A DNA stretch of 64,000 nucleotides from contig LRSL01000117.1 in assembly GCA_001563335.1 (NCBI GenBank), positions 1 to 64,000 of the forward strand, written 5' to 3'. The stretch is from Candidatus Thorarchaeota archaeon SMTZ1-45. GTDB lineage: Archaea > Asgardarchaeota > Thorarchaeia > Thorarchaeales > Thorarchaeaceae. Positions 30,167 to 64,000 of the stretch are shown here, one piece after another. The notes beneath the pieces were generated by a model that saw only the letters and a program-made list of their open reading frames with translations, made no database searches and had not been told where the DNA came from. Position 1 is the stretch's first letter, and each line of letters starts with the position of its first letter. The position numbers and the translations under genes were made by a program.

Positions 30167-33160
30167 CTATGAAATAGGAATTTCAACTTCGAATGTTGTT
30201 TCTCTCTCTTGCAGCAGTCTAATCTTCCAGCCATGTGCTTCAACGAGACGCTTGACAATAGCTAAACCAAATCCTTGACCAATCTTGCTGGTAGTAAAAC
30301 CACGCAAGAAGATCTTAGCACGCTGAGGCTCTGGGATTTTTTCTCCATCATTCCTTACCTTGATTTTAAATAAACCATCAGTCTTTGAAGCATTAACTTC
30401 TATCCTGTTTGGTTTCCCATGTCGGATTGCATTGTCGAAGAGGTTACGAAAGATTTGAGCAACTTTCCTTCTGTCTGCACTCACAACTGGCAGCTTATCT
30501 TGCGTATAGTCTACGCTATTTGGGATGATTGATTTTGCTACTTCCTCTACCAGAGAAGATAGATCAACATTCATGGTTTCCTCGATTATCAGACCAGCAT
30601 CTGCGAGAGCCACTGAATGGTCTAACATTTCACCTGTTTCCTTCAACAAGATCCGTAATCTTGTGAGATAGTCGAAATCCTGTTCTTCTTGAACGAGCTC
30701 AATGAATCCGTACATATTATGAAAGATGTTTTTTAGGTCATGACTCATAGAGTGCGCGAAATCGCTAAGTTCTTCCTTCTGCTTCTTGAGCATCTCAAGA
30801 GCATTTTTCTGCTCAGTGATATCTGCCATTACACCTTCAATGTAGCCTTTTTCTGACCAGAGGCTGAGAGAAAAACGCATCCAACGCAGCTCACCATTTT
30901 TCGTTGACACAGGTAGTTCAGTGACAAACCGCTGTTGCACTCGAAGTTTCTCCTTCAGAAATTCCCACTCATTTGGCTGTTTGAGAATGTCAATAACAAA
31001 ACTTGAGCTGTCGATCATTAAGCCTTCCTTTTCAAATCCCAATATACTTGCAAACTGGTCATTGCATTCAAGTATCAATCCATCAGAAATTCTAGCTCTA
31101 AATAATCCTACCAAAGCATTGTTGTACAATTCTTTGTAGCTTTCTCTACTCTCTATTAATGCCTGTTCAGCGAGAGTTCTATCAGTCACATTTTGTACAT
31201 GAATTATGAAACCTTGAAGGTCTTCTTCTTTCCCATATTTTATGGGTGAATATACGCATTCAATATGAATTATCCCACTCTTGGTAGTATTGTAAAGGTC
31301 ATTATCTTTAACTATCGAGAAATCAAACTTATACTGAGCAAACGCTAACTCTCCTCTGCGAAGACTCTCTTTTGCATATTCAGGAGTGTTAGGATCTGCA
31401 AACAAATCGAAGCCAACGAATTCCTCCAATGACTCTACTCCGAATAGGTCAAGTGCAGCCTTGTTTGCTCTAACGAGTATTCCATCCGAATCAAATAGTT
31501 CGATGCATATAGGCGACTCCTCAAAAATGGTACGGAACATCTCTTCATTTGCACGTAAAGCAGATTCAGTCAGTTTACGCTCAGTTATGTCTGTAGCATG
31601 CATGACATATCCTCTAGACATGCCATTTTCATCCAGAAGTGATGACAAAGTGACATCCATATATACGACATCGTTACGAGATGTCTGAAGGATGCCCTTG
31701 GCTTTAACATACTCAAAATCCCATTTATACATAAATCGATAGACATTGCCATTGCGAATATTTTCCAAGACATCGTCAGGCAAATTCGACTCTTCAAATA
31801 GATTAAGCCTAAAAGCATCTTCCTTGCTCTCTAAGCCAAGTAAATCAAGACCTGCTTTGTTAATGTCTAATAGAAATCCCTCCGAGTCGAAAATGCCCAC
31901 TGCTCCAGGTGCGTGATCAAATACTCCTTGCCACCACTTCTCTCGGATTTTCTCAGTTTCAGTCACAACATCCATTTTGATTTCACTGGCAGAACAGAGA
32001 ATCGCAGTGACTTTTCCATCTTCATCGGTCATGACTCTATCTTGACAGATAATCTTCTTTTCTACACCTTCTGGTGTAATGATCACCATCTCACAGGATC
32101 CACCTGGTCCACCGCCAATAAGAGATGAGAGATACTGTGCAGCGGTTTCTCGACTATCTTCAGGGATAAACGATTCAATCCAGTTTCTACCTACAATATC
32201 TTTCTCTTCGCAGTTGAGAAGTTCACCTCCCTTTTGGTTTATCATTGTTATATTGAACTTAGGATCTAGAGCCAGAATCATTGTGCCAGCAAGGTCGAGA
32301 TACCTTTGCGCTTTATCTCGTTCTTCTCTAAGTAGTATTTCTTGCTGAACTCTCGTGGTTATATCTTGGACTGTCCCCATCATGCGAACCGCATTTCCAT
32401 CCTCATTAAACGTAACTTCAGCTTCTTCGTGAACGAAACGTATCACTCCATCAGGAAGTACAATCCTATGGTCTATGCTATACTTCTGATTGTCATGAAT
32501 AGCTTTGTTAACTGATTCACGGACAAAATCTCTATCATCAGAATGAACTGAGTCGAGAAATGCATCATAGGTTGCTTCAAACTCTTGTGGGGCTAATCCG
32601 AATATCCGATAAATCTCATCTGACCATGCGATGTTATCCTCGATAATATCCCAATCCCAATGGCCTAAATGAGCAATACTTTGAGCTTCAGCAAGCTTAG
32701 CTTCACTCTCACGAAGTCTCCGCTCAGACTCAACGAGTGCTCTCTCGGTTCTACGCTTTTTTACAGATGTATGGATGTAATATGATAGCTCAGCATACAA
32801 CCCTTCGATCTCAGATGAACTTTTTCGAATATAATAGTCCGCCCCAAGATTGAGTGCTTGAATTGCGATTTCCTCTCGACTTTTCCCAGTGAAGATGATG
32901 ATGGGGATATCAAACTCGTTTACTCTGACTTGTTCAAGAATATCAAGACCTGTAGGTTGGTCTTCACCAAGATCGATATCGCATACAGCAGCATCGAATT
33001 TACCTTCTAAAAGAAGATTCATCGCTTCCTCAGGTTTTTCCACAGGCACAATCTCATATTCTGAACTTTGCCGCTTCAAGAACTGCTCACTAAGTTCGAG
33101 ATGCACTGGGTCGTCGTCTACCATAAGAACTCGGATGACCATCTTAATACACAGCCCCAT
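30167..33160 (-). CDS. Hybrid sensor histidine kinase: REC, multiple PAS, HisKA, HATPase
   Basis: VLMVDDD...CDIDL...FTGK receiver, about 5 PAS/PAC repeats, SHDLKN H-box, NLFDNAIRH, GQGFGLAIV. Confidence 0.93.
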   Translation of the reverse strand: MGLCIKMVIRVLMVDDDPVHLELSEQFLKRQSSEYEIVPVEKPEEAMNLLLEGKFDAAVCDIDLGEDQPTGLDILEQVRVNEFDIPIIIFTGKSREEIAIQALNLGADYYIRKSSSEIEGLYAELSYYIHTSVKKRRTERALVESERRLRESEAKLAEAQSIAHLGHWDWDIIEDNIAWSDEIYRIFGLAPQEFEATYDAFLDSVHSDDRDFVRESVNKAIHDNQKYSIDHRIVLPDGVIRFVHEEAEVTFNEDGNAVRMMGTVQDITTRVQQEILLREERDKAQRYLDLAGTMILALDPKFNITMINQKGGELLNCEEKDIVGRNWIESFIPEDSRETAAQYLSSLIGGGPGGSCEMVIITPEGVEKKIICQDRVMTDEDGKVTAILCSASEIKMDVVTETEKIREKWWQGVFDHAPGAVGIFDSEGFLLDINKAGLDLLGLESKEDAFRLNLFEESNLPDDVLENIRNGNVYRFMYKWDFEYVKAKGILQTSRNDVVYMDVTLSSLLDENGMSRGYVMHATDITERKLTESALRANEEMFRTIFEESPICIELFDSDGILVRANKAALDLFGVESLEEFVGFDLFADPNTPEYAKESLRRGELAFAQYKFDFSIVKDNDLYNTTKSGIIHIECVYSPIKYGKEEDLQGFIIHVQNVTDRTLAEQALIESRESYKELYNNALVGLFRARISDGLILECNDQFASILGFEKEGLMIDSSSFVIDILKQPNEWEFLKEKLRVQQRFVTELPVSTKNGELRWMRFSLSLWSEKGYIEGVMADITEQKNALEMLKKQKEELSDFAHSMSHDLKNIFHNMYGFIELVQEEQDFDYLTRLRILLKETGEMLDHSVALADAGLIIEETMNVDLSSLVEEVAKSIIPNSVDYTQDKLPVVSADRRKVAQIFRNLFDNAIRHGKPNRIEVNASKTDGLFKIKVRNDGEKIPEPQRAKIFLRGFTTSKIGQGFGLAIVKRLVEAHGWKIRLLQERETTFEVEIPIS

Positions 33161-36093: not shown

Positions 36094-36879
36094 TCACTTT
36101 TTTTTCTTTGCACACCTTTTAGCAATTAAAGCTGCTACAGAGCCTGCACCCAAACCATTCCCAATATTAACAACTGAAAGACCTGGTGCACATGTCTGTA
36201 ACATTGAAGCTAATGCTGTTTCACCCTTGCCACCATGGCCATATCCAGTTGGAACAGGCACACCAATAACAGGTAAATCGATCAATGATGCGACTACTGT
36301 TGGTAATGCACCCTCCATTCCTGCGAACACCACAACTGCATCAACATCTTCATCTATTATCTTCTGGATAGGTTCAATCAATCTGTGAATACCAGCGACA
36401 CCAACATCATAGAATGTCAATACACCTACACCCATTAATCGAGCGATTGCTTCTGCTTCACGTGCATAGATGACATCCGAAGTTCCTGCAGTAAGAATTG
36501 CAATCTTTCCATTCTTTGGTGGCTCTGACCAGGATTTTGAATACACAAAGACTGTAAGATGGTTGTCAGAACCTAGTTCTTCAATTATAAGACTTGGATG
36601 TGCTTGTTTTATACCATCTAATTTGTCCTGATCCATTCTAGTGAGTAGAACAACACCATTTTTCTCAACCAGAGTCTGCACAATTCGCACAATACTCTCA
36701 GTTGTCTTTGTTTCAGCAAGTACGACCTCTGGGACACCAGTACGTTCCTGTCTATTTACATCTATTAAACCGATGTCTCCAATTCTCGCAAGAGCTAGGG
36801 CTCTAAGTTCTTTTTCTGCATCATCGATAGAAATTTTCCCAGATGCCAAGTCTTCAAGTATTTCACGTGTGGATGTCAT
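36094..36879 (-). CDS. larB: Nickel-pincer cofactor biosynthesis protein LarB
   Basis: R..RTGVPEVV, AGTSD, DVGVAGIHRL, AGMEGALP, VPTGYG, SMLQTCAPG, VVNIGNG. Confidence 0.92.
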   Translation of the reverse strand: MTSTREILEDLASGKISIDDAEKELRALALARIGDIGLIDVNRQERTGVPEVVLAETKTTESIVRIVQTLVEKNGVVLLTRMDQDKLDGIKQAHPSLIIEELGSDNHLTVFVYSKSWSEPPKNGKIAILTAGTSDVIYAREAEAIARLMGVGVLTFYDVGVAGIHRLIEPIQKIIDEDVDAVVVFAGMEGALPTVVASLIDLPVIGVPVPTGYGHGGKGETALASMLQTCAPGLSVVNIGNGLGAGSVAALIAKRCAKKKK

Positions 36880-36923: not shown

Positions 36924-38006
36924 TTAAGGGACAATCTCGCAACCATTGTTATACTTCGGGTAATTAAGCGCATCAATTGATATAATGCCTTCTGCTATGA
37001 TTTCCCTAACTTCTTCGACATGTTTCCTTAATGAGTCAAAGAGATGTTGAGAAACTTGACAAACCTTATTAAAACCTTCATCACCCCAAAGCCTTTGTCT
37101 GTTTGCGAAAAGACATCGTCCTCCACACAATCCATAATCGTCGCAAGATGGACAAGGTTCAACAACACTCATAGAGTCCTTCAATTGTTGAGGATTTGAA
37201 TCCCATATATTACCAACAATTGAAAACTCCCAATCAGGAGATATTGGACACACCCCTATCTTACCATCAACATGAATTGCAAATGTGTCTAAACCAGAAC
37301 CACACCTTAGTTTGGAGGTTTCTCCTGTTATGAGGCTATACATAAGCGGCATAAATGGAACAATCCCCTCCACAGTACCTGATTTCATATTTCCTACCCA
37401 CTCTTCCACAAGTTGAGTAATTCCAGGATTATAGATTTCATTAGTCCACCTATCAAAATCCTGCCAATTGTCTTCTGCATCCCAGATGACATTAAGCTGC
37501 CAATGTACGTGGTCAAAAGAAGGATTTTCGAGATCGATTAGATGTCTAACATCTTTGTAGATGTCTGTCTGTTCTGAAACAGCCATTCTAGCAACAATGT
37601 TTCCTTTATAGCCAAGCTTGCGAAGCCATTTGACATTCTTGATTACTTTTTTGTAGACTCCCTTAGAGCGATATCCATCTGTTGTTTCTTCTGTTCCATC
37701 GATAGATACAAGGATTGAGTGGAATCTCTTGATGTATGCTTCACGGATCTTATCTAGATGGAGCCCATTGGTCTGAAGCATGAATCTTTCCTTTGGAAAG
37801 TGGTCCATCAGTTCAACGATTAAAGGAACCCTAAGTGTAGGCTCACCGCCATAAAGCATGAGCTGTACATCCTTGTCCTTCTTGAGAAAGGTTGCTAGAT
37901 CATTCATCGAATACTGAATCTCAGTATCTGGTCCAATCTCTTCGCCTCCATGACAATAGAAGCAATTGAGATTACACCTTCTAGTTAGGACCAGATGATA
38001 GTTCAA
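36924..38006 (-). CDS. Radical SAM/SPASM protein (archaeal AF0577-like putative peptide-modifying family)
   Basis: CNLNCFYC, YGGEP, QTNG, SIDG, SPASM Cys set (CGSG, CP, CPSC...CGGRC) and C-terminal CEIVP. Confidence 0.88.
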   Translation of the reverse strand: MNYHLVLTRRCNLNCFYCHGGEEIGPDTEIQYSMNDLATFLKKDKDVQLMLYGGEPTLRVPLIVELMDHFPKERFMLQTNGLHLDKIREAYIKRFHSILVSIDGTEETTDGYRSKGVYKKVIKNVKWLRKLGYKGNIVARMAVSEQTDIYKDVRHLIDLENPSFDHVHWQLNVIWDAEDNWQDFDRWTNEIYNPGITQLVEEWVGNMKSGTVEGIVPFMPLMYSLITGETSKLRCGSGLDTFAIHVDGKIGVCPISPDWEFSIVGNIWDSNPQQLKDSMSVVEPCPSCDDYGLCGGRCLFANRQRLWGDEGFNKVCQVSQHLFDSLRKHVEEVREIIAEGIISIDALNYPKYNNGCEIVP

Positions 38007-51480: not shown

Positions 51481-52626
51481 CTATAGACCGTGATATGGAA
51501 ACACTAATTCTTTCACTCGACGAAGTGCTCTCTCGAGGTCCAAAACAATATCTTCTCTTGAGAAGTACATTTGAACAACTTCATTCTTATCTCGCATGAA
51601 TTCTGGTATGTCTTTGTAACCCATTTCGTTACATGTTTCTCTAAACTCGTCAGGCATTTTATTTGGTATATCCTCATCTAGCATAACAGCGAGAAACAGA
51701 GTCCAAAGACGTGCAACGTTGACTGGATGGTACCCACCTCCACCGACAGCAAGCCAACCAAGTTTACATATCTCAGTTGAGATTTCTCGAAGCTTTCCTA
51801 CTACTGTTTCATATCCATGTGAGGTGTATGTTAAATGTGCGAGAGGATCCAAATAATGTCCGTCAACCCCCATTTGGGTCACAAGAAGGTCTGGTTTGAA
51901 GGATTCAAAAAGTGGAACAACAACATCATCGAACACCCGTAATAGTTCTGGTGTTCCAGCTCCAGGAATCAAAGGGACATTCACAGAATAACCAATGCCC
52001 TCAGCAGCACCAGTTTCGTAGATAAATCCTGTTCCAGGAAAGAGTGTCTGTCCAGTTTGGTGTACAGAAATCGTCAGTACATCCTTAGACCTATAGAATG
52101 CATTTTGAACGCCATCACCATGATGCGCATCGAAGTCAAAATACAAAACCTTGCTATTTTGTTTCTTGTGGAGCATTTTGATTGCAATTACAATGTCATT
52201 ATATATACAAAAACCAGATGCTGCGTTTTTGTGTGCGTGATGAAGACCACCTGAGATGCAGAATGCATTAGATGCCCCATCCATTATTGCTCTAATTGCA
52301 TCAAGAGTAGCACCAACATATCTTGCACCTGTTTCATGTATTTGAGGAAAGATAGGATTGTCTGCTGTCCCAAGCCCATAATGAGGATAAGCGTTGTTGT
52401 TCGTCCCACTATCCACAACAGCATTAATGAATTCTGAAGAATGGAACAATTCAAGTTCCTCTCTTGAGGCAAAAGCTGGCTTTAGTTCTTTCACTTTATC
52501 TAGCAATCCAAGCTGTTGTGAAAGCAAATAAGTTAGTTTGAGCCTATCTGGTTTTAAGGGATGATCTCTTCTGAACTCGTATTCAAGAAGTGCGTTTGAA
52601 TAAGGATAGACAAGCTTACCTCTCAT
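51481..52626 (-). CDS. acuC: AcuC / histone-deacetylase-family Zn-dependent deacylase
   Basis: HPLKPDR, GGLHHA, SGFCIYND, DAHHGDG, SVHQ, FPGTG, GVDGH..DPL, GGGGY. Confidence 0.9.
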   Translation of the reverse strand: MRGKLVYPYSNALLEYEFRRDHPLKPDRLKLTYLLSQQLGLLDKVKELKPAFASREELELFHSSEFINAVVDSGTNNNAYPHYGLGTADNPIFPQIHETGARYVGATLDAIRAIMDGASNAFCISGGLHHAHKNAASGFCIYNDIVIAIKMLHKKQNSKVLYFDFDAHHGDGVQNAFYRSKDVLTISVHQTGQTLFPGTGFIYETGAAEGIGYSVNVPLIPGAGTPELLRVFDDVVVPLFESFKPDLLVTQMGVDGHYLDPLAHLTYTSHGYETVVGKLREISTEICKLGWLAVGGGGYHPVNVARLWTLFLAVMLDEDIPNKMPDEFRETCNEMGYKDIPEFMRDKNEVVQMYFSREDIVLDLERALRRVKELVFPYHGL

Positions 52627-52746
52627 CAATATCAATCCTTCAGCAGAACAATACATCATCCCTTCTAAGTCTGTGGTTGCGGAAATAAATTCCAAATTCT
52701 ATTTGTTTTCAAAGCTCTGGTCTTATACCTATTAGATGTCTGACAA

Positions 52747-54915
52747 TTAATCCAGGAATTTGGTCAACCCTCTGGAAAAGGTTGCCTTTGCTTCACTGAG
52801 AGGTATTACAAATTTTCCAAAATCTGCCACAGGATCTGATGTAGTTAGCCCCAGTTCACATGTTGAGATGCCATGTTTGTCAAGTAACTCAAGGAACTCT
52901 GGTTGTTTACTTTCCGTGACTTCCGCTAAATAACGAGAAGCGGTTTCTGAAAAAAGTGCCTGAGCTAAGCTGTTTACTGTGCCAGGAACGTAGTCCATAT
53001 TCAACTTAAACCCATATTCACTATCTACCACCATTTTCATTAGAGCAACAGCGACTCCTCCTCTACCAACATTATTGCAGGATCGTATGAAACCCCGTTC
53101 GTGAGCCTCAAGGATGACATTCATTGCTCGCTTCTCCCAATTAGGTTGATATTTCGGAGGTTCTCCTTTAACTTCACCAATGGTCAATCGTTGAAACTCA
53201 CTACCGTTCAATTCTGGTAGAGTTTCTCCAATTAGGAAGATATTTGCCCAGGGTGTGACAAGGTTTCGTTTAATAGGCGTGAAGCCGCGATTAAACATTC
53301 CTGCAATCATTATCTGAGGCGTTGGATTTATTCTCTTTATTTTTCCATCAATCTCAGATTCGTTATACAATGATACGTTGCCAGCTACGATTGGGAGGTC
53401 AAAGTCATTAGAGAATCTTCCAAGTCCTCTTAGAGCTTCCACAAACTGAGCGTAAGACTCAGGTCTTTCGGGATTGCCAAAATTAAGGCAGTTAGCAATG
53501 AATAATGGCTTTGCTCCCATTGATACAATATTTCTGAGTGACTCAGCAGCTGAATTTGCAGCACCTGTTTGAGGATCAAGCCTGCACCAGAATGAATTGC
53601 AATCACTTGTAAAAGCAAGAAGCCTTCCATTCGGGAACTCTAATACACCTGCATTTTGTCCCAAGTCCACGACAGTATTTGTTTGTACATGTTGGTCATA
53701 CTGACTGAACACCCATGAACGGTCACAAATATTGATTGATTCAAGCATGTTCAGTAGAGCTTTTTTATAATCTTCAGGCTCTTTGAACCAACTCAGAGAG
53801 TCAGTCTGAGCAGGTATTTTTCCTTCAACTCTTTCAGGAATTGGGAAACCATCCACTAGTAGACTGATCGGGAGTCGGGCAATCACCTCTCCTTGATACT
53901 TTGCAGTGTAATGACCATCATTGGTTACATTTCCAATTATTGCATAAGGTGTATCATTCTTTTCGAGTAATGTTATCACACGTTCCATATTTGAAGGAGA
54001 TATAATAGCAAGCATTCTTTCTTGAGACTCAGAGATAATAATCTCTGAGAGTTCCATATCCTTCTCCCTAAGTGGTATTTTTTCTAGATCTATTTCTACT
54101 CCCGTCCCTCCTGCTTTGGCGAGTTCTCCAGCAGCTGATACCAATCCTCCCCCACCAAAATCCTGTAGGCCATCTAGAAGTTCCTCTTCAATGAGTTCAG
54201 TCAGAGTATCAATCAAGACCTTCTTTGCTAGGGGGTCGCCAATCTGAATTGCACCACGACTTTCCCTAGTATCATCTGAAAGTGTTTCTGATGCAAAACT
54301 GACACCTCCTATACCGTCTGGTCCTGTTGTAGCACCAAACATTACGAGATTATGTCCTGGAGTTCTAGCACTGCTTCTAACAACTTTCTCTGGTCTCACA
54401 AATCCGATACATACCACATTAACCAAGCAATTTTCATCGTATGAGTCATCGAACTCGATTTCCCCACCAACAACTGGAATTCCAACACCATTCCCATAAT
54501 CGGATATTCCTCGAACTATGTTCTCAAGAAGATAGGCATTATGAGGTTTCTCTGGGTTTCCAAGCCGCAAACAGTTCATCAAACCCACTGCCTTGCATCC
54601 TTGTGAAATGACATCTCTTACAATTCCTCCAACACCAGTTGCTGCTCCGTTGTATGGATTAACCTGACTTGGATGATTGTGGGACTCCATAGCAACTCCA
54701 ACATAATATCCTCCTCCAATGTCTACAAGCCCTGCTCCTTCTCCAATGCCTAGAATGACATTTTCTCCAGAGGTTTTGAAAAGATAAAACCATCTTTTAC
54801 TACTCTTATAGCTACAATGTTCTGACCAAAGGACGTCGAGCATAGCAAGTTCTGTCTTGGAAAGCTCCCTACCCAAGACTTTCTTTGCATGCTGTAATTC
54901 ATCCTTTGTAATCAT
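52747..54915 (-). CDS. purL: FGAM synthase subunit PurL (small form)
   Basis: WSEHCSYKSS, ESHNHPS, GAATGVGGIVRD, QIGDP, QDFG, SESQERM, QYD, LNFGNP, GNVSLYN. Confidence 0.93.
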   Translation of the reverse strand: MITKDELQHAKKVLGRELSKTELAMLDVLWSEHCSYKSSKRWFYLFKTSGENVILGIGEGAGLVDIGGGYYVGVAMESHNHPSQVNPYNGAATGVGGIVRDVISQGCKAVGLMNCLRLGNPEKPHNAYLLENIVRGISDYGNGVGIPVVGGEIEFDDSYDENCLVNVVCIGFVRPEKVVRSSARTPGHNLVMFGATTGPDGIGGVSFASETLSDDTRESRGAIQIGDPLAKKVLIDTLTELIEEELLDGLQDFGGGGLVSAAGELAKAGGTGVEIDLEKIPLREKDMELSEIIISESQERMLAIISPSNMERVITLLEKNDTPYAIIGNVTNDGHYTAKYQGEVIARLPISLLVDGFPIPERVEGKIPAQTDSLSWFKEPEDYKKALLNMLESINICDRSWVFSQYDQHVQTNTVVDLGQNAGVLEFPNGRLLAFTSDCNSFWCRLDPQTGAANSAAESLRNIVSMGAKPLFIANCLNFGNPERPESYAQFVEALRGLGRFSNDFDLPIVAGNVSLYNESEIDGKIKRINPTPQIMIAGMFNRGFTPIKRNLVTPWANIFLIGETLPELNGSEFQRLTIGEVKGEPPKYQPNWEKRAMNVILEAHERGFIRSCNNVGRGGVAVALMKMVVDSEYGFKLNMDYVPGTVNSLAQALFSETASRYLAEVTESKQPEFLELLDKHGISTCELGLTTSDPVADFGKFVIPLSEAKATFSRGLTKFLD

Positions 54916-55604
54916 TTAGTAGCCCTCACAAAGTTATCCAAAATTTGTAGTCCATCAGAGGATCCTAAAACCGGTCTTGATGCTCTTTCAGGATATGGCA
55001 TCATTCCAAGAACGTTCCCCTTTTGATTTGTAATTCCTGCGATATTTTCAATTGATCCATTTGGATTAGCATCTGTTGTTATTTCACCTTGAGCATCACA
55101 ATATCTGAATGGAATTCGACCCTCATGGTTCAATGCATCAAGATGTTCATTTTGACAGTAATAATTGCCCTCAGCATGAGCTATAGGTACTCGTATAACT
55201 GCACCTTCTATATTCTCAATGAATACAGATGGACTTTCACTTACACGAACATAGACCCATTTACATACAAAACGGGCGGAGTAATTGGGTAGAAGTGCTC
55301 CTGGCAGGAGTCCTGTTTCGGTCAGTATTTGAAAGCCATTGGAGATTCCAATAACTGGTTTCCCATCTTCTGCAAGATCTCTAATACCTTCAGTTATGAC
55401 TTCCATTGACGCGACTGCTCCGGCTCTCAAATAATCCCCATAGGAAAAACCTCCAGGTATCACGATACCATCTGCGTCTTTTAATCCTGCAAGCCCTTTT
55501 CTACTCGGAACAAGGTAAGGTTTTGCCTCGGGAATCTGGTTGAGTGCTCGTAGAACATCGTTCTCACTGTTAGTTCCAGGAAACCTAATCACTGCGATTG
55601 ACAC
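54912..55604 (-). CDS. purQ: PurQ homolog lacking catalytic Cys and His
   Basis: FPGTN, PGGFSYGDYLRAG, GISNGFQIL, AHAEGNY, NPNGS, GMMPYPER. Confidence 0.9.
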   Translation of the reverse strand: MSIAVIRFPGTNSENDVLRALNQIPEAKPYLVPSRKGLAGLKDADGIVIPGGFSYGDYLRAGAVASMEVITEGIRDLAEDGKPVIGISNGFQILTETGLLPGALLPNYSARFVCKWVYVRVSESPSVFIENIEGAVIRVPIAHAEGNYYCQNEHLDALNHEGRIPFRYCDAQGEITTDANPNGSIENIAGITNQKGNVLGMMPYPERASRPVLGSSDGLQILDNFVRATK

Positions 55605-56569
55605 TATTTGAAATTCACCTCTTGCTTTTCGGATATTGGATTTGACAAGAGCTTGATGTTCATAATTTTGAGGTGATTAAGTACTTCAGACGTAATGGGT
55701 TTCCTAAGAAAGATATTGAATACTTTTCCCACTCTCACATCCTCAGCTTCTCCAAATCCTAGTCTAACTAATGCTCTCTTGGTTACCTCTCCTGGGGGAT
55801 TCCTGATTCCATCTTTGGGATTTACTAAGACTTGCACCATCTCTTTCCGAACATTTACTTCCTCTGGTTTGGTTTGGGTTATTACCTCGATGAGTTTCGA
55901 GTAAACCTCGAATATTCCTCCTTTCTCCTTTCCAAATACATCCCTATCTCTCGAATCTGAAGAAGTATCCCATATTCTCATTGTATCCCCTGATAGCTCA
56001 TCCGCCAAAACAATATGCCCATCTTTTGTATAACCAAACTCAAGCTTGAAGTCAACCAGCGTGAGACCCTGTTGCTTCAATAACGCAGTTAAGTAATAGT
56101 TCGTAGAATGGGTTACAGACTGCATGAATTGTAGAATCTCATTTTTCACAAGCCCCAGACTAGTAATTGCATTTTCTATAATCAAAGGATTATTCAGTTT
56201 GTCATCTTTTAAAAAGAATTCAATAATAGGTGATTCAAGAACTGTACCCTCTTCTACTCCATAACGGGTACAAAATGATCCTGCTGCAATGTTTCGGCAC
56301 ACGATCCCTATAGGAAATACATTCACTTTTCTACAGAGTAATCTAGGACCATCAAGCGCTTTCAAAAAGTGTGTGTCTATACCCTTGCCCTCAAGATATC
56401 CGAGAAGATATTCGGTCATCCTGCAAGCCAGATTCCCTTTCCCTTCAATCTCTTCTTGTCTCTTTCTATCTCCTCCCATTACAATATCTGTAAATTCGAT
56501 AATCACATTATCAGTTGATTTAGGGTCTTGGTAGATTCTCTTCACTTTTCCTTCATGAATAAGGTCCAT
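55604..56569 (-). CDS. purC: PurC (SAICAR synthetase)-PurS fusion with degenerate PurC site
   Basis: EGKVK, RNIAAGS, LVDFKLEFG, LADE, RIWD. The C-terminal ~80 aa are PurS-like (NPPG...LGF...VRVGK...LLSNPISE). Confidence 0.85.
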   Translation of the reverse strand: MDLIHEGKVKRIYQDPKSTDNVIIEFTDIVMGGDRKRQEEIEGKGNLACRMTEYLLGYLEGKGIDTHFLKALDGPRLLCRKVNVFPIGIVCRNIAAGSFCTRYGVEEGTVLESPIIEFFLKDDKLNNPLIIENAITSLGLVKNEILQFMQSVTHSTNYYLTALLKQQGLTLVDFKLEFGYTKDGHIVLADELSGDTMRIWDTSSDSRDRDVFGKEKGGIFEVYSKLIEVITQTKPEEVNVRKEMVQVLVNPKDGIRNPPGEVTKRALVRLGFGEAEDVRVGKVFNIFLRKPITSEVLNHLKIMNIKLLSNPISEKQEVNFK

Positions 56570-56617: not shown

Positions 56618-57691
56618 TCATGTTGACACCTCATCAAGACACTTCTCTTCTGCTGCTGCCTTAATATCAAGCATACAAAGATCTAGCGGGCTTTGAATAT
56701 CAGCTTTGAACTTGAGGGACAGTCTTCTCATTTCAGGACTAGTTGGTCCGACACATGGTGCTCCTGGAACTCTTGGACTGAGATCAAAGACAACGAATTC
56801 TGATGATTCTGTAATTGCTCCTTGAAGGGAGAAGAGACCTATCATTTTTGGTGGAAAGTATTCCTTGATTCCTTTCAGCAGAAGCGCTGCAGTTTCATAT
56901 ACCAGCGGTTTCTTACTTTCTCTCATTGTGACTCCTTTGTGCCCAATCTCCTCATTTACCACAGCGATTTCGAGCTTCAGTTGCTCCTTGGCTGGTAGAT
57001 TGAGTAATCCCGAGAGATTAGTTTGGATTCGGTCATCAAAACCCACGAAATCAAAATCACCTAAAACATGAGCCATGCCATATGCTTGGAAATTTGCATT
57101 AAAGCGTGGTGCAATCACAAACTCTTCGATGGTTGCCTCCTCAAGATCCTCTTCTGAGATTATCCCAGCTTTGAGTAATTTCTTGCTCTCTATTTCATAG
57201 TCTGATTGTGAATTTGCGAAAAAGAAGGCTCGCTCAAGCTGATTGTTTTTTTGCTGAACTTTGATAATTGCCAAGCTATCAATCGAGTCCGGAGTGAATG
57301 ATTTTGGGGTCCTAATACCTGATTGTTTTAGAAGCCAGCATTGATCTTTTGGCTGGCCTCTATCTTCAACTCTTAGTACATGCCGATTTCCATATAGTGG
57401 AATTCGAAACTCGTTTTCAATTCCATCATATCCTACATAGACTGAGAACGATCTATTTGGAATCCAAAGTGTGTTTAATTCTTCTAACCTCTTTTGAATG
57501 TCCTCTTGAAGTATATCTTTGAAGCTTTCAAGTATAATGAACTCATCATAGAGATGTCTGTTGAATTGAGTATAGAGATGTTCTCTTCCTCTCTGGCAAA
57601 CTATGACTGTACGAAATCCATTTGCTTTTGCTGCCATACCAATTTCTTCAGCACTATGTGAACCAATCATTCCGATGATGGGTAGTTTCAT
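56618..57691 (-). CDS. PurP-like ATP-grasp protein (PNRSF subgroup)
   Basis: GSHSA, IPNRSF, YGNR, LERAFF, RIQTN, EIGH..TMRES, DLSPRVPG. Confidence 0.88.
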   Translation of the reverse strand: MKLPIIGMIGSHSAEEIGMAAKANGFRTVIVCQRGREHLYTQFNRHLYDEFIILESFKDILQEDIQKRLEELNTLWIPNRSFSVYVGYDGIENEFRIPLYGNRHVLRVEDRGQPKDQCWLLKQSGIRTPKSFTPDSIDSLAIIKVQQKNNQLERAFFFANSQSDYEIESKKLLKAGIISEEDLEEATIEEFVIAPRFNANFQAYGMAHVLGDFDFVGFDDRIQTNLSGLLNLPAKEQLKLEIAVVNEEIGHKGVTMRESKKPLVYETAALLLKGIKEYFPPKMIGLFSLQGAITESSEFVVFDLSPRVPGAPCVGPTSPEMRRLSLKFKADIQSPLDLCMLDIKAAAEEKCLDEVST

Positions 57692-57705: not shown

Positions 57706-58659
57706 TTACTTCAATACTTCATCAAGTTGATTTTGTTCTATGAGCTCACGAATCTCTATCGCAATCCTCCTGCCCATCCAAACTGGCTCTCCATGTTGAA
57801 GATATGAATAGGGTGATGATGGAATCCAAACATTTGTACCTGCAACAATCCTTCCACTGAATTCAAAGGTGTAGATTTGTTGTTCTCTATCAATTACTGT
57901 TTCAATACAAAATGGTCCTGGTATCTTCTGATTGCATAGACGATGAAATGCTTCAACAAAGGCAACACCCATATCAAAATACTCAGCTAATATGGATTCT
58001 CTCAAGACAAGAGGCAAGTTACCAATCACAGTAAAAGTAGGTTCATCATTAAATCGTAGACTAGAGTCTATATCAGTTTCATATCTAATGTCTGCACTAA
58101 AAACCTCAGTTCTATTCCTAGTCAGTGAGTTGAAATAGGTAACGAAAACCTTTGTTCCAACTATATATTCTTGTAAAATATAATCCACTGATGGGTTCAT
58201 CTTCTCTTTAGCCCAATCAGTATTTTTTGCTACAAAATATCCTCTACCTCCTGCAGCGCCATGAGTCTTTGCGATTACAGGGCCATTTATTTCACCCAAT
58301 GATGAGTATTCCTTTGGAACAGTGAATCCAGCTTCCACCATTAGTTTAGATTTCAATTTTCGGTTTTCTTCCCATCTCAGGAGTTCTTTGTTACCAAATA
58401 ATCTCAAGTCTGAATTGAGTAACTTTTGAGCACCAATGTAGGTCACAAAAGAACCATGAGGAATTAATACTACATCCGAGAGGTCCATCTCCAAGATTTG
58501 CTCAAATGAATCGACTTCAACAATCGAGTCTTCCAAACCAAATGATTTGTAGAACGGAATGCGATTGGGACGACAATAAAGTTGGGTATGAAACCCTTCA
58601 GCTTTTGCCCCTGAAATAATGTTAAGAGCGCTATGACTAGCGATGGTTCCAATCTTCAT
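57706..58659 (-). CDS. purP: FAICAR synthetase PurP
   Basis: ASHSAL, GAKAEGF, PHGSF, GGRGYF, RYET, GNLPLVLRES, FEFSGRIVAGTN, MGRRIA. Confidence 0.9.
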   Translation of the reverse strand: MKIGTIASHSALNIISGAKAEGFHTQLYCRPNRIPFYKSFGLEDSIVEVDSFEQILEMDLSDVVLIPHGSFVTYIGAQKLLNSDLRLFGNKELLRWEENRKLKSKLMVEAGFTVPKEYSSLGEINGPVIAKTHGAAGGRGYFVAKNTDWAKEKMNPSVDYILQEYIVGTKVFVTYFNSLTRNRTEVFSADIRYETDIDSSLRFNDEPTFTVIGNLPLVLRESILAEYFDMGVAFVEAFHRLCNQKIPGPFCIETVIDREQQIYTFEFSGRIVAGTNVWIPSSPYSYLQHGEPVWMGRRIAIEIRELIEQNQLDEVLK

Positions 58660-58854
58660 TCCAAGAAATCCCTCTCACAGTGTCTGAAATTAGTTACTGT
58701 TCCTACTTCTTGAACCTTGTCACAGATTCTCTAAGCACACCAAGTACAACAAAAATCTCTTCACCAAGTCCATTACGAGCATGAACCTGTTCCTATTTTA
58801 CCTTGTTTTGTTATGTGCTCTTAGTTATGTATTTTTTCACAATTGCATTCTACA

Positions 58855-59412
58855 TCAGAAGAACTCTCGTAAAATGACACCAACAACGGTCCCAAGAAAT
58901 GTAGCCACTACCATCATGATAAAGTATACCATTGAGAGGGCTAATGCACTTAGGATGAAAGCATCAATTCCTAATTCTGGCACATACAAACCTGGAGAGG
59001 CAAGAAAAATGATAAAGAAAATCATGAAAAAGAAGGCTCCAATGACACTTGAGATTAGAGCTTTTCCAGCTTCAGCCGATGTTAGTCCAATGGGTATAGC
59101 AACAATTATTGGGATGAAAAACAAGTATGTGGCTGAACTCTCGAATCTTGCCGTGATTATAAATGAATATATTGTGGTGTCAATTAACCCAACTAATGCT
59201 GGAACTAATAACATTATCAAAAGGTCTTTCCTTCTTTCAGTCATTGATACTCCTAAAACCTTGACAATTGGTTGAGGTCTCCCATCTTTTTCGATATATT
59301 CTGGTTCTTCTCTAGTCGGAAGTGGTCTTAGAAACCCTTTCTTCTCTTCTGGTTCTTCTTCCTTTTCCGGAGCCTCAACTCTATACTTTTCCTCGTTTGC
59401 CATGAAGACCAC
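58855..59412 (-). CDS. Hypothetical 4-TM membrane protein
   Basis: Charged N-terminus followed by four hydrophobic helices. Confidence 0.75.
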   Translation of the reverse strand: MVFMANEEKYRVEAPEKEEEPEEKKGFLRPLPTREEPEYIEKDGRPQPIVKVLGVSMTERRKDLLIMLLVPALVGLIDTTIYSFIITARFESSATYLFFIPIIVAIPIGLTSAEAGKALISSVIGAFFFMIFFIIFLASPGLYVPELGIDAFILSALALSMVYFIMMVVATFLGTVVGVILREFF

Positions 59413-63264: not shown

Positions 63265-64000
63265 CTATTCCATTGTATCACCTGGAGTCATGTAGTAGCT
63301 GAATAGCTCACGAAAGTCGTTTATTGCATCTACTAGCTCTTTTCGAGTCGTGCCTTTCGATCTCATGAACCAACCCTGTTTGAGGGGTGAGGCTCCGCTA
63401 TGTAAATTAACCAGTTGGGTAGCTTCGTTGATGATTTGGACAAGTTCAGGAATCTTAGGTAACCCAAGTAGAAGAAGAAGGTTCGTCCTAGGATCTTCTT
63501 CATGATATTGCACATAGCATGGGGTTATTGCAGCTCCAGGTGCAATGAACTTGTCTAGTGCCTCTTTCACATGCATGCCAAATTCTGCCTTTGCAATGTG
63601 TCTTGGTCCAGAAAGGACATAATACACACTCTCTGCATTTGGCTCATCACCAACATCTGCATAGGAACACTCCTTTACTGCATAGTCAATCATTGTTCTG
63701 AGCTGTTTTGGCATACTACCTGCGTCAGGTATGAGACCTATATCTGTATAGAGCGCAGGAACCACAACAGGGTCTAACTTTCTCGCATAGTCTGCAAGAT
63801 CAGTTGTTGGGAAAACGTCTTTCGATTTTTCCCAAACACCTGGTGAGAGCATTGCCTCAACAACATCCAGAGCAAGTGGGTTGACCAGCTCAACAAATGC
63901 TTGTTCAGTTCTTGCCTCTAAATCAGAACTCTCATCCAAAGTTGAAGGCACCATGGTTTCAATTGAGTCAATGTCCGCTATGTCGACTTCAAGCTCCCTC
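63265..64000 (-). CDS. C-terminal part of a divergent tubulin/FtsZ/CetZ-superfamily protein (5'-truncated by window edge)
   Basis: Frame is open to the window end. H7-like AFVELVNPLALDVVEAML, T7-like TTDLADY, and CetZ-like C-domain AESVYYVLSGP...NLLLLLGLPKIPELVQIINEA. Confidence 0.6.
   Translation of the reverse strand, partial: RELEVDIADIDSIETMVPSTLDESSDLEARTEQAFVELVNPLALDVVEAMLSPGVWEKSKDVFPTTDLADYARKLDPVVVPALYTDIGLIPDAGSMPKQLRTMIDYAVKECSYADVGDEPNAESVYYVLSGPRHIAKAEFGMHVKEALDKFIAPGAAITPCYVQYHEEDPRTNLLLLLGLPKIPELVQIINEATQLVNLHSGASPLKQGWFMRSKGTTRKELVDAINDFRELFSYYMTPGDTME

Follow-up and report, generated by a model that had tools for sequence, protein, structure and literature searches.

The 64,000-nucleotide stretch that we analysed (hereafter the window; the start of contig LRSL01000117.1 of Candidatus Thorarchaeota archaeon SMTZ1-45) carries a gene for PurQ, subunit I of formylglycinamidine ribonucleotide (FGAM) synthase, in which two of the three residues of the catalytic triad are replaced. 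With moderate confidence, we read this protein as a subunit with a dead glutaminase in an orphaned PurL-PurQ module, kept in a purine auxotroph for a role that is independent of glutaminase activity. The decisive context for the altered PurQ is the deletion of the surrounding purine pathway; in the order to which the window's organism belongs, loss of the catalytic Cys is confined to genomes without PurF, PurD and PurM. The window is an early stage, the first step in the erosion series of the module.

Catalytic residues of PurQ in the window and its relatives

The purQ gene (54912..55604, minus strand) encodes 230 amino acids. Its GTG start overlaps the stop codon of the preceding purC-purS fusion gene (purC/S), and its stop codon TGA shares the tetranucleotide ATGA with the start of purL. 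Over its whole length the protein passes the curated cut-offs of two NCBIfam equivalog models for PurQ, with 289.8 bits against a threshold of 177.8 for TIGR01737 and 271.8 bits against 212 for NF002957, and its closest homologues are annotated as Candidatus Thorarchaeota. In a phmmer alignment with Thermotoga maritima PurQ (3d54_D), the nucleophile Cys86 and the general base His186 correspond to Ser88 (TCC, 55341..55343) and Tyr204 (TAT, 54993..54995), respectively, each codon being a single base from the canonical one (TGC and CAT). The third triad residue, Glu188 of 3d54_D, is kept as Glu206 (GAA, 54987..54989); all three codons are read from the minus strand. The motifs around the two replaced residues read GISNGFQ and GMMPYPER, and PGGFSYGDYLR and AHAEG are present. 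A first-pass annotation made from the letters alone had given exactly these coordinates for the gene and for the Ser and Tyr codons, and its account of a triad with two of three residues lost holds.

Fifty-four invariant columns were defined from 31 full-pathway PurQs of the order. Two of them are changed in the window, exactly C88 and H204, and all 51 non-triad invariants are intact, which bears out the earlier statement that the rest of the protein, PGGFSYGDYLR and AHAEG included, is well conserved. Two random hits among the 54 columns would both fall in the triad with a probability of 0.002, so the triad changes are more than chance. Replacement of the nucleophilic Cys by Ser kills the glutaminase activity of class I amidotransferases. 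Because both the nucleophile and the general base are replaced in the window's PurQ, its glutaminase is predicted to be dead; judged by homology, the absence of activity that the first-pass annotation proposed is well supported. The protein is a homologue of an active enzyme that lacks key catalytic residues, which makes it a candidate pseudoenzyme. A candidate second PurQ in the window's genome (G000; 3.54 Mb in 119 contigs, 87.7% complete) was rejected, the sole other weak match being HisH.

Changes at the nucleophile position recur among relatives. In the best 120 homologues, all at least 65% identical and including the query, position 88 is Cys in 100, Ser in 17, Asn in 2 and Ala in 1, and position 204 is His in 117, Tyr in 2 and Gln in 1. 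A Ser-His-Glu triad is found in 15 of the 120. Their tree requires at least 9 changes between Cys and non-Cys, of which about 4-5 are forced by well-supported branches alone. Of the 87 species genomes of the window's order, 57 have PurQ and 60 have PurL, the two co-occurring, and 21 of the 57 PurQ-bearing genomes have a non-Cys PurQ (Ser, Gly or Ala). The window's own genus (g1) has six Ser PurQs, with the codons TCC in G000, TCA in G034, AGC in G032 and AGT in G036, G047 and G049. The PurQ of G007 also has Ser, and that of G010 has Ser plus a His-to-Ser change. In genus g12 all 13 PurQs are Cys-less, 12 of them with Gly, for which each of the four GGN codons occurs, and 1 with Ala. Most Cys-less relatives in the order retain the His and the Glu. 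In the tree of PurQ+PurL, G000 is sister to G036 with a Shimodaira-Hasegawa-like approximate likelihood ratio test (SH-aLRT) support of 99, and P0002 and P0003, which bear Cys and His, nest among the two; because of this nesting and of the different Ser codons (TCC and AGT), the Cys losses of G000 and G036 were independent events.

A search of metagenome contigs for near relatives yielded no PurQ loci other than 80 that are 44-54% identical to the window's PurQ; as a wider background, 79 of these have Cys and 1 has Gly. Among 150 diverse PurQ representatives at 50% identity, 128 have Cys and 19 have Gly, the other three having Asp, Ala or a gap. In the best metagenomic relative (L165:3520-4206, 49% identical) the nucleophile motif is GIGTGVHIA, so that this is a further degenerate PurQ, from outside the order. 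G047, whose syntenic PurQ has Ser, also has, on a 3.6-kb contig beside a PfkB-like kinase gene and another gene, a divergent PurQ (L059:1483-2097, G047:C231; 36% identical) with the canonical Cys-His-Glu triad, which may represent contamination or a second PurQ type.

Deletion of the purine pathway around purL and purQ

The window's pur cluster consists of five genes, all on the minus strand: a purP paralogue (56618..57691; DUF1246/DUF1297, formate-dependent 5-aminoimidazole-4-carboxamide ribonucleotide (AICAR) formyltransferase family), a second purP paralogue recognised by Pfam (57706..58659), purC/S (55604..56569; phosphoribosylaminoimidazole-succinocarboxamide (SAICAR) synthetase plus a PurS domain, PF01259 and PF02700), purQ, and purL (52747..54915; a small PurL of 722 amino acids, 807 bits on NF002290). 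The two PurP proteins are 78% and 74% identical, respectively, to their orthologues in G045, a relative with a full cluster. The five reading frames are all open, with no stop or frameshift, and are translationally coupled; purQ directly adjoins purL and the PurS domain in the order purC/S-purQ-purL. Gene fusions are typical of the order: purC-purS (55604-56569 in the window) is shared by every relative examined, and a purE-purM fusion occurs in relatives with the full cluster, G045 for example (L077:11578-13014).

Synteny was derived from the Pfam annotation of syntenic loci and a BLAST matrix. The relatives share a frame consisting, in order, of an ACD-like coenzyme A ligase, a flavin mononucleotide (FMN) dehydrogenase, a 185-amino-acid protein without a Pfam family, the pur cluster, a histone-deacetylase-family gene, a 207-amino-acid protein and an amidohydrolase. 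The upstream anchor in the window is the gene for the 185-amino-acid protein (58855..59412, minus strand; 63% identical to the G045 orthologue) and the downstream anchor is the histone-deacetylase-family gene (51481..52695, minus strand; PF00850), which follows the pur cluster in G045, G054, G058 and G010. Within this frame, the G045 cluster, with Cys88 in PurQ, reads purN, purF, purP, purP, purC/S, purQ, purL, purE/M, purD, guaA. The clusters of the window and of G032 (Ser88) are reduced to purP, purP, purC/S, purQ, purL; those of G036, G034 and G007 (Ser88) and of G054 (Cys88) to purC/S, purQ, purL; that of G047 (Ser88) to purC/S, purQ, purL, guaA; and those of G058 from genus g12 (Gly88) and G010 (Ser88) to purQ, purL. 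At the site that holds purN and purF in G045, the window has a spacer of about 195 bp (58660..58854), and at the site of purE/M, purD and guaA it has 51 bp (52696..52746). In G054 erosion preceded triad loss, because its eroded cluster still has a Cys PurQ.

The missing genes are not found elsewhere in the genome. Searches by tblastn with the G045 proteins (E<=1e-3) gave no match to PurN, PurF, PurD or GuaA in the whole 3.54-Mb assembly, and the sole match to PurE/M was a LarB-like gene. Hidden Markov model (HMM) searches agreed, so that neither the cluster nor the assembly, which is 87.7% complete, yielded a PurF, PurD, PurN/T, PurM or PurE; the C-terminal domain of GMP synthase was likewise not detected in the assembly. 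PurO (PF07826) was absent from all five genomes searched, including the full-pathway G045, and is hence uninformative. Candidate purine phosphoribosyltransferases (Apt-like and XPRT/HGPRT-like) are present in G000, all scoring under the curated cut-offs, and purine salvage appears plausible. The LarB-like protein (36094-36879 in the window, 261 amino acids) has a C-terminal aminoimidazole ribonucleotide (AIR) carboxylase domain and is the only PurE-like match in the genome, at 40 bits; its gene adjoins a radical SAM gene (36924-38006) and is kept in G045, G054, G058 and G010. A general switch from glutamine to ammonia was also considered and ruled out: G000 has three glutamine synthetase genes, its PyrG and HisH keep the Cys-His-Glu triad, and no ammonium transporter (Amt, PF00909) was detected in the assembly.

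Across the order, loss of the Cys and loss of the pathway go together. PurF is present in 0/21 Cys-less genomes versus 32/36 genomes with a Cys PurQ, PurD in 0/21 versus 34/36, and PurM in 0/21 versus 33/36. The Cys genomes missing one or more of these are G054, a true deletion by synteny, and the fragmentary G033, G006 and G012. PurC is found in 44 of the 87 genomes, always together with PurQ/PurL except in the fragmentary G053, and 14 genomes (the 13 of g12 and G010) retain purQ-purL without PurC or PurS. Because PurC is confined to genomes with PurQ/PurL and 14 genomes keep purQ-purL alone, the loss is nested, with purQ-purL always going last.

We propose that an ancestral ten-gene pur cluster lost purN-purF and purE/M-purD-guaA by deletion in place. 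The organism, a Thorarchaeota-like Asgard archaeon, would then have been unable to make formylglycinamide ribonucleotide (FGAR) or to use FGAM and would have become a purine auxotroph. With no need for glutamine-derived ammonia, the Cys and then the His would have been replaced, the remainder of PurQ staying constrained; triad loss would thus, apparently, be a consequence of the deletion of most of the purine pathway around it. In related lineages the module has persisted for long as a Cys-less PurQ and a PurL with a decayed catalytic half, under purifying selection. The pair most likely survives through a second, non-glutaminase role, presumably as a PurL-PurQ(-PurS) complex without glutaminase activity and probably without catalysis. 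The residue loss, the deletion of the pathway, their co-distribution and the purifying selection in relatives are observations; for G000 itself, we infer loss of activity, continued complex formation and such a role.

Constraint, decay and competing explanations

Relatives without the Cys show purifying selection on the module. By the Nei-Gojobori method, applied to pairs with a synonymous divergence (dS) below 1, the ratio of nonsynonymous to synonymous divergence (dN/dS) of PurQ is 0.06-0.15 between Cys proteins (5 pairs), 0.10 between the Ser proteins of G047 and G049 (1 pair) and 0.06-0.17 between the Gly proteins of g12 (10 pairs); PurL of g12 gives 0.07-0.10. In these relatives, Cys-less PurQ and its partner PurL are as constrained as the canonical proteins.

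The active site of PurL is nonetheless eroding. On 138 invariant columns drawn from 11 full-pathway PurLs (8 of the order and 3 bacterial), the number changed is 3 in G054, 4 in G047, 6 in G000, 6 in G036, 17 in G032, 24 in G007, 28-31 in g12 and 56 in G010. Among the residues lost in g12 is the His of two motifs, SEHC and ESHNHPS, which were matched to the motifs of Thermus thermophilus PurL (3VIU). In T. maritima PurL these motifs are reported to be catalytic. In the oldest of the Cys-less lineages, PurL too is without its catalytic motifs. In g12 the N-terminal half has lost 25-28 of 88 columns and the C-terminal half 2-4 of 49 (Fisher p 8e-5 to 3e-3); in G010 the counts are 48 of 84 and 8 of 49. 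This N-terminal concentration points to selection on the PurQ fold and on the C-terminal half of PurL. A tentative extension, which we find possible without leaning towards it, is that PurL-PurQ has a non-catalytic second cellular function that is normally hidden by its enzymatic role and that alone keeps the pair once purine synthesis has been abandoned. The nucleophile would then be lost first and the catalytic N-terminal half of PurL afterwards, with constraint persisting on the C-terminal half and on the PurQ fold; the order would display the whole series at one syntenic locus, with the window as its earliest visible stage.

The main rival is plain decay, in which the relic genes have no function in G000 and are drifting to loss, their open frames reflecting only recency. 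Several observations favour it and weigh against a retained role. The purQ-purL pair has been lost altogether from 27 of the 87 genomes, including same-genus genomes that are 92-97% complete. Polarised by outgroup, the window's PurQ has 15 derived changes and its Cys/His-bearing sister P0002 has 5 (p=0.04). The six changed PurL invariants of the window (I85V, F118L, R199P, V223I, Y403F and D475N, with R199P in the invariant TGRDGIGG motif) exceed the 0-3 of leave-one-out controls from full-pathway genomes of the same family; PurC/S has 15 of 110 invariants changed versus 2-14 in controls, and PurP1 has 14 of 157 versus 0-9. These extra losses in PurL, PurC/S and PurP1 fit a relaxation of the whole relic. 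PurC/S scores 204.0 bits on PF01259, less than in any of the 31 full-pathway genomes (219-258); only other eroded or contig-truncated copies score lower. Selection after erosion in G000 alone is seen weakly, since dS from G000 to all of the relatives at hand has reached saturation and the P values are modest. The pairing of erosion with Cys loss amounts to 3-4 independent contrasts on the PurQ+PurL tree (sign test p=0.25), and the assembly is 87.7% complete.

Despite these points, we consider plain decay somewhat unlikely. None of the five genes has acquired a stop or a frameshift, and the overlaps of starts and stops are kept. The 13 non-triad derived changes in the window's PurQ miss all 51 non-triad invariant columns (P=0.033, a modest value). 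The module has been kept at a dN/dS of about 0.1 in the 13 g12 species and in several further lineages with an eroded cluster, and its loss is ordered, with purQ-purL always last.

It is quite unlikely that the window encodes an ammonia-dependent FGAM synthase, in which PurL would use free NH3, PurQ would serve as a structural or tunnel subunit, and purine synthesis would still run. The Cys-to-Ser change is identical to that of human CPS1 (PMC4655335). PurQs with Gly at the nucleophile position occur in complete bacterial purE-K-B-(C)-S-Q-L-F-M-N operons with intact PurL invariants, and the window's PurL itself keeps 132 of 138 invariants. However, with PurF, PurD, PurN, PurM and PurE missing from cluster and assembly, such an enzyme would have neither a source of FGAR nor a consumer of FGAM. 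The same enzymes are likewise missing from each of the order's 21 Cys-less genomes, the G000 assembly yielded no ammonium transporter, and R199 of the otherwise invariant TGRDGIGG motif of PurL is Pro.

The first-pass annotation had suggested that the dead site might suit a glutamine sensor, binding glutamine and signalling nitrogen status to PurL or another partner; this we judge very unlikely. The non-triad invariants, PGGFSYGD and GxxNGFQ among them, are intact in the window, so that a binding pocket could persist, and the His and the Glu are retained by most Cys-less relatives. Nevertheless, one g12 subclade, G066 and G010 have altered the G56/D57/R60/F91 columns near the site and still keep the gene, and the conserved neighbourhood shows no evident regulatory partner or output domain.

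That Ser88 acts as the nucleophile of a still-active hydrolase is highly improbable. A Ser-His-Glu triad does occur in 15 of the best 120 homologues, but in the window the His is Tyr, which leaves no general base, and relatives have Gly, Ala or Asn at the nucleophile position. In addition, Cys-to-Ser abolishes the glutaminase activity of class I amidotransferases (for CPS1, PMC4655335).

There is, finally, virtually no chance that a sequencing or assembly error lies behind Ser88 and Tyr204: although each change is a single base from the canonical codon, the same letters recur in Logan contigs of three runs (X2 across the Tyr codon, 54946-55140; X3 and X4 across the Ser codon, 55208-55401 and 55242-55395; each with 0 differences at a depth of 2-3) further to X1, the probable source of the assembly, which spans the whole stretch, and there are clade-wide parallels. 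The verification of reads that had been proposed beforehand thus excludes sequencing error.

Other features of the locus and comparison with known systems

Elsewhere in the window, positions 30167-33160 encode a hybrid sensor kinase of 997 amino acids, in which a receiver domain and a HATPase domain accompany at least four PAS domains. In three relatives a 461-amino-acid tubulin/FtsZ-family gene lies two genes past the ACD-like gene (L065:2205-3590, L070:1861-3246 and L076:1536-2930), and the open reading frame at the end of the window (63265-63954 onward) may be the C-terminal part of such a gene.

The locus bears on annotation, since automatic pipelines label such PurQs as working FGAM synthase subunits once the equivalog cut-offs are passed. 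Asgard reconstructions that count purL and purQ as evidence of purine synthesis would be wrong for about one third of the order. The locus provides a natural time series from a multi-subunit enzyme to a pseudoenzyme, in which the pathway is deleted, the nucleophile is lost and the catalytic half of the partner decays. The locus also dates purine auxotrophy in a group that serves for reasoning on the archaeal ancestor of eukaryotes. If the second function is real, it would be an unrecognised role of a universal purine enzyme.

The nearest known system is the canonical PurQ of the PurLQS FGAM synthetase (T. maritima 3D54 chain D; Bacillus subtilis), which the window's protein resembles in its full-length match, its motifs, and its adjacency and coupling to purL and a PurS domain. 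It differs in the exchange of Cys86 for Ser and of His186 for Tyr, and in a genome without PurF, PurD, PurN, PurM and PurE that offers no reaction context. The Cys was fully conserved in the archaeal PurQs then known, according to Brown et al. (2011; PMC3261824). Our literature search found no paper on archaea with a Cys-less PurQ or with an orphaned PurL-PurQ pair.

Gly-type PurQs (GxGNGFQ) of bacterial pur operons are similar to the window's PurQ in that they have no nucleophile, score above the equivalog cut-offs and lie beside purL. In contrast to the window, where the pathway is deleted, these operons are complete, including purF and purM, and the PurL invariants are intact. Examples inside complete operons come from Bhargavaea cecembensis, a record titled Bacillus subtilis DE0224 and a metagenome-assembled genome (MAG) of Coriobacteriia. 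The loci include L087:9001-9687, L124:6602-7279, L085:4454-5158 and 75 more (L086-L164); the scan pattern itself demands Gly, so that the 78 Gly loci among 80 indicate breadth and not frequency. Their hosts include the cultured Bacilli Bhargavaea, Sporosarcina, Lederbergia and Siminovitchia, and MAGs of Coriobacteriia, Lewinellaceae and Armatimonadota. The sequences suggest a widespread NH3-dependent FGAM synthase, and we found no paper describing Gly-type PurQ in complete bacterial operons.

A parallel for the pathway loss is Korarchaeum cryptofilum, which has lost the purine pathway and kept two purP-like genes and purB (PMC3261824; Brown et al., 2011), just as G000 has lost the pathway and retained the purP pair and purB. 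Retention of purL or purQ is not reported for K. cryptofilum, whereas the window keeps both, with a PurQ that is predicted to be dead.

Amidotransferase modules that have lost their catalytic residues are known from two further systems. The S2 domain of human CPS1 is an inactive glutaminase-like domain in which the catalytic Cys is replaced by Ser294, explaining the inability of CPS1 to use glutamine (PMC4655335). The window similarly retains a class I amidotransferase module with its catalytic Cys replaced by Ser. Unlike CPS1, however, which performs a free-ammonia synthase reaction in a working pathway, the window's PurQ has also lost the His and its pathway is gone. The vGAT/ORF75 proteins of gammaherpesviruses are FGAM-synthase homologues without the triad that have a role outside purine synthesis (PMC7605207); they are viral, single-chain and act through host PFAS, whereas the window's proteins are cellular and split into PurQ and PurL. 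Going by its residues, the window's PurQ would be a glutamine-amidotransferase pseudoenzyme of a kind already known from CPS1 and vGAT/ORF75.

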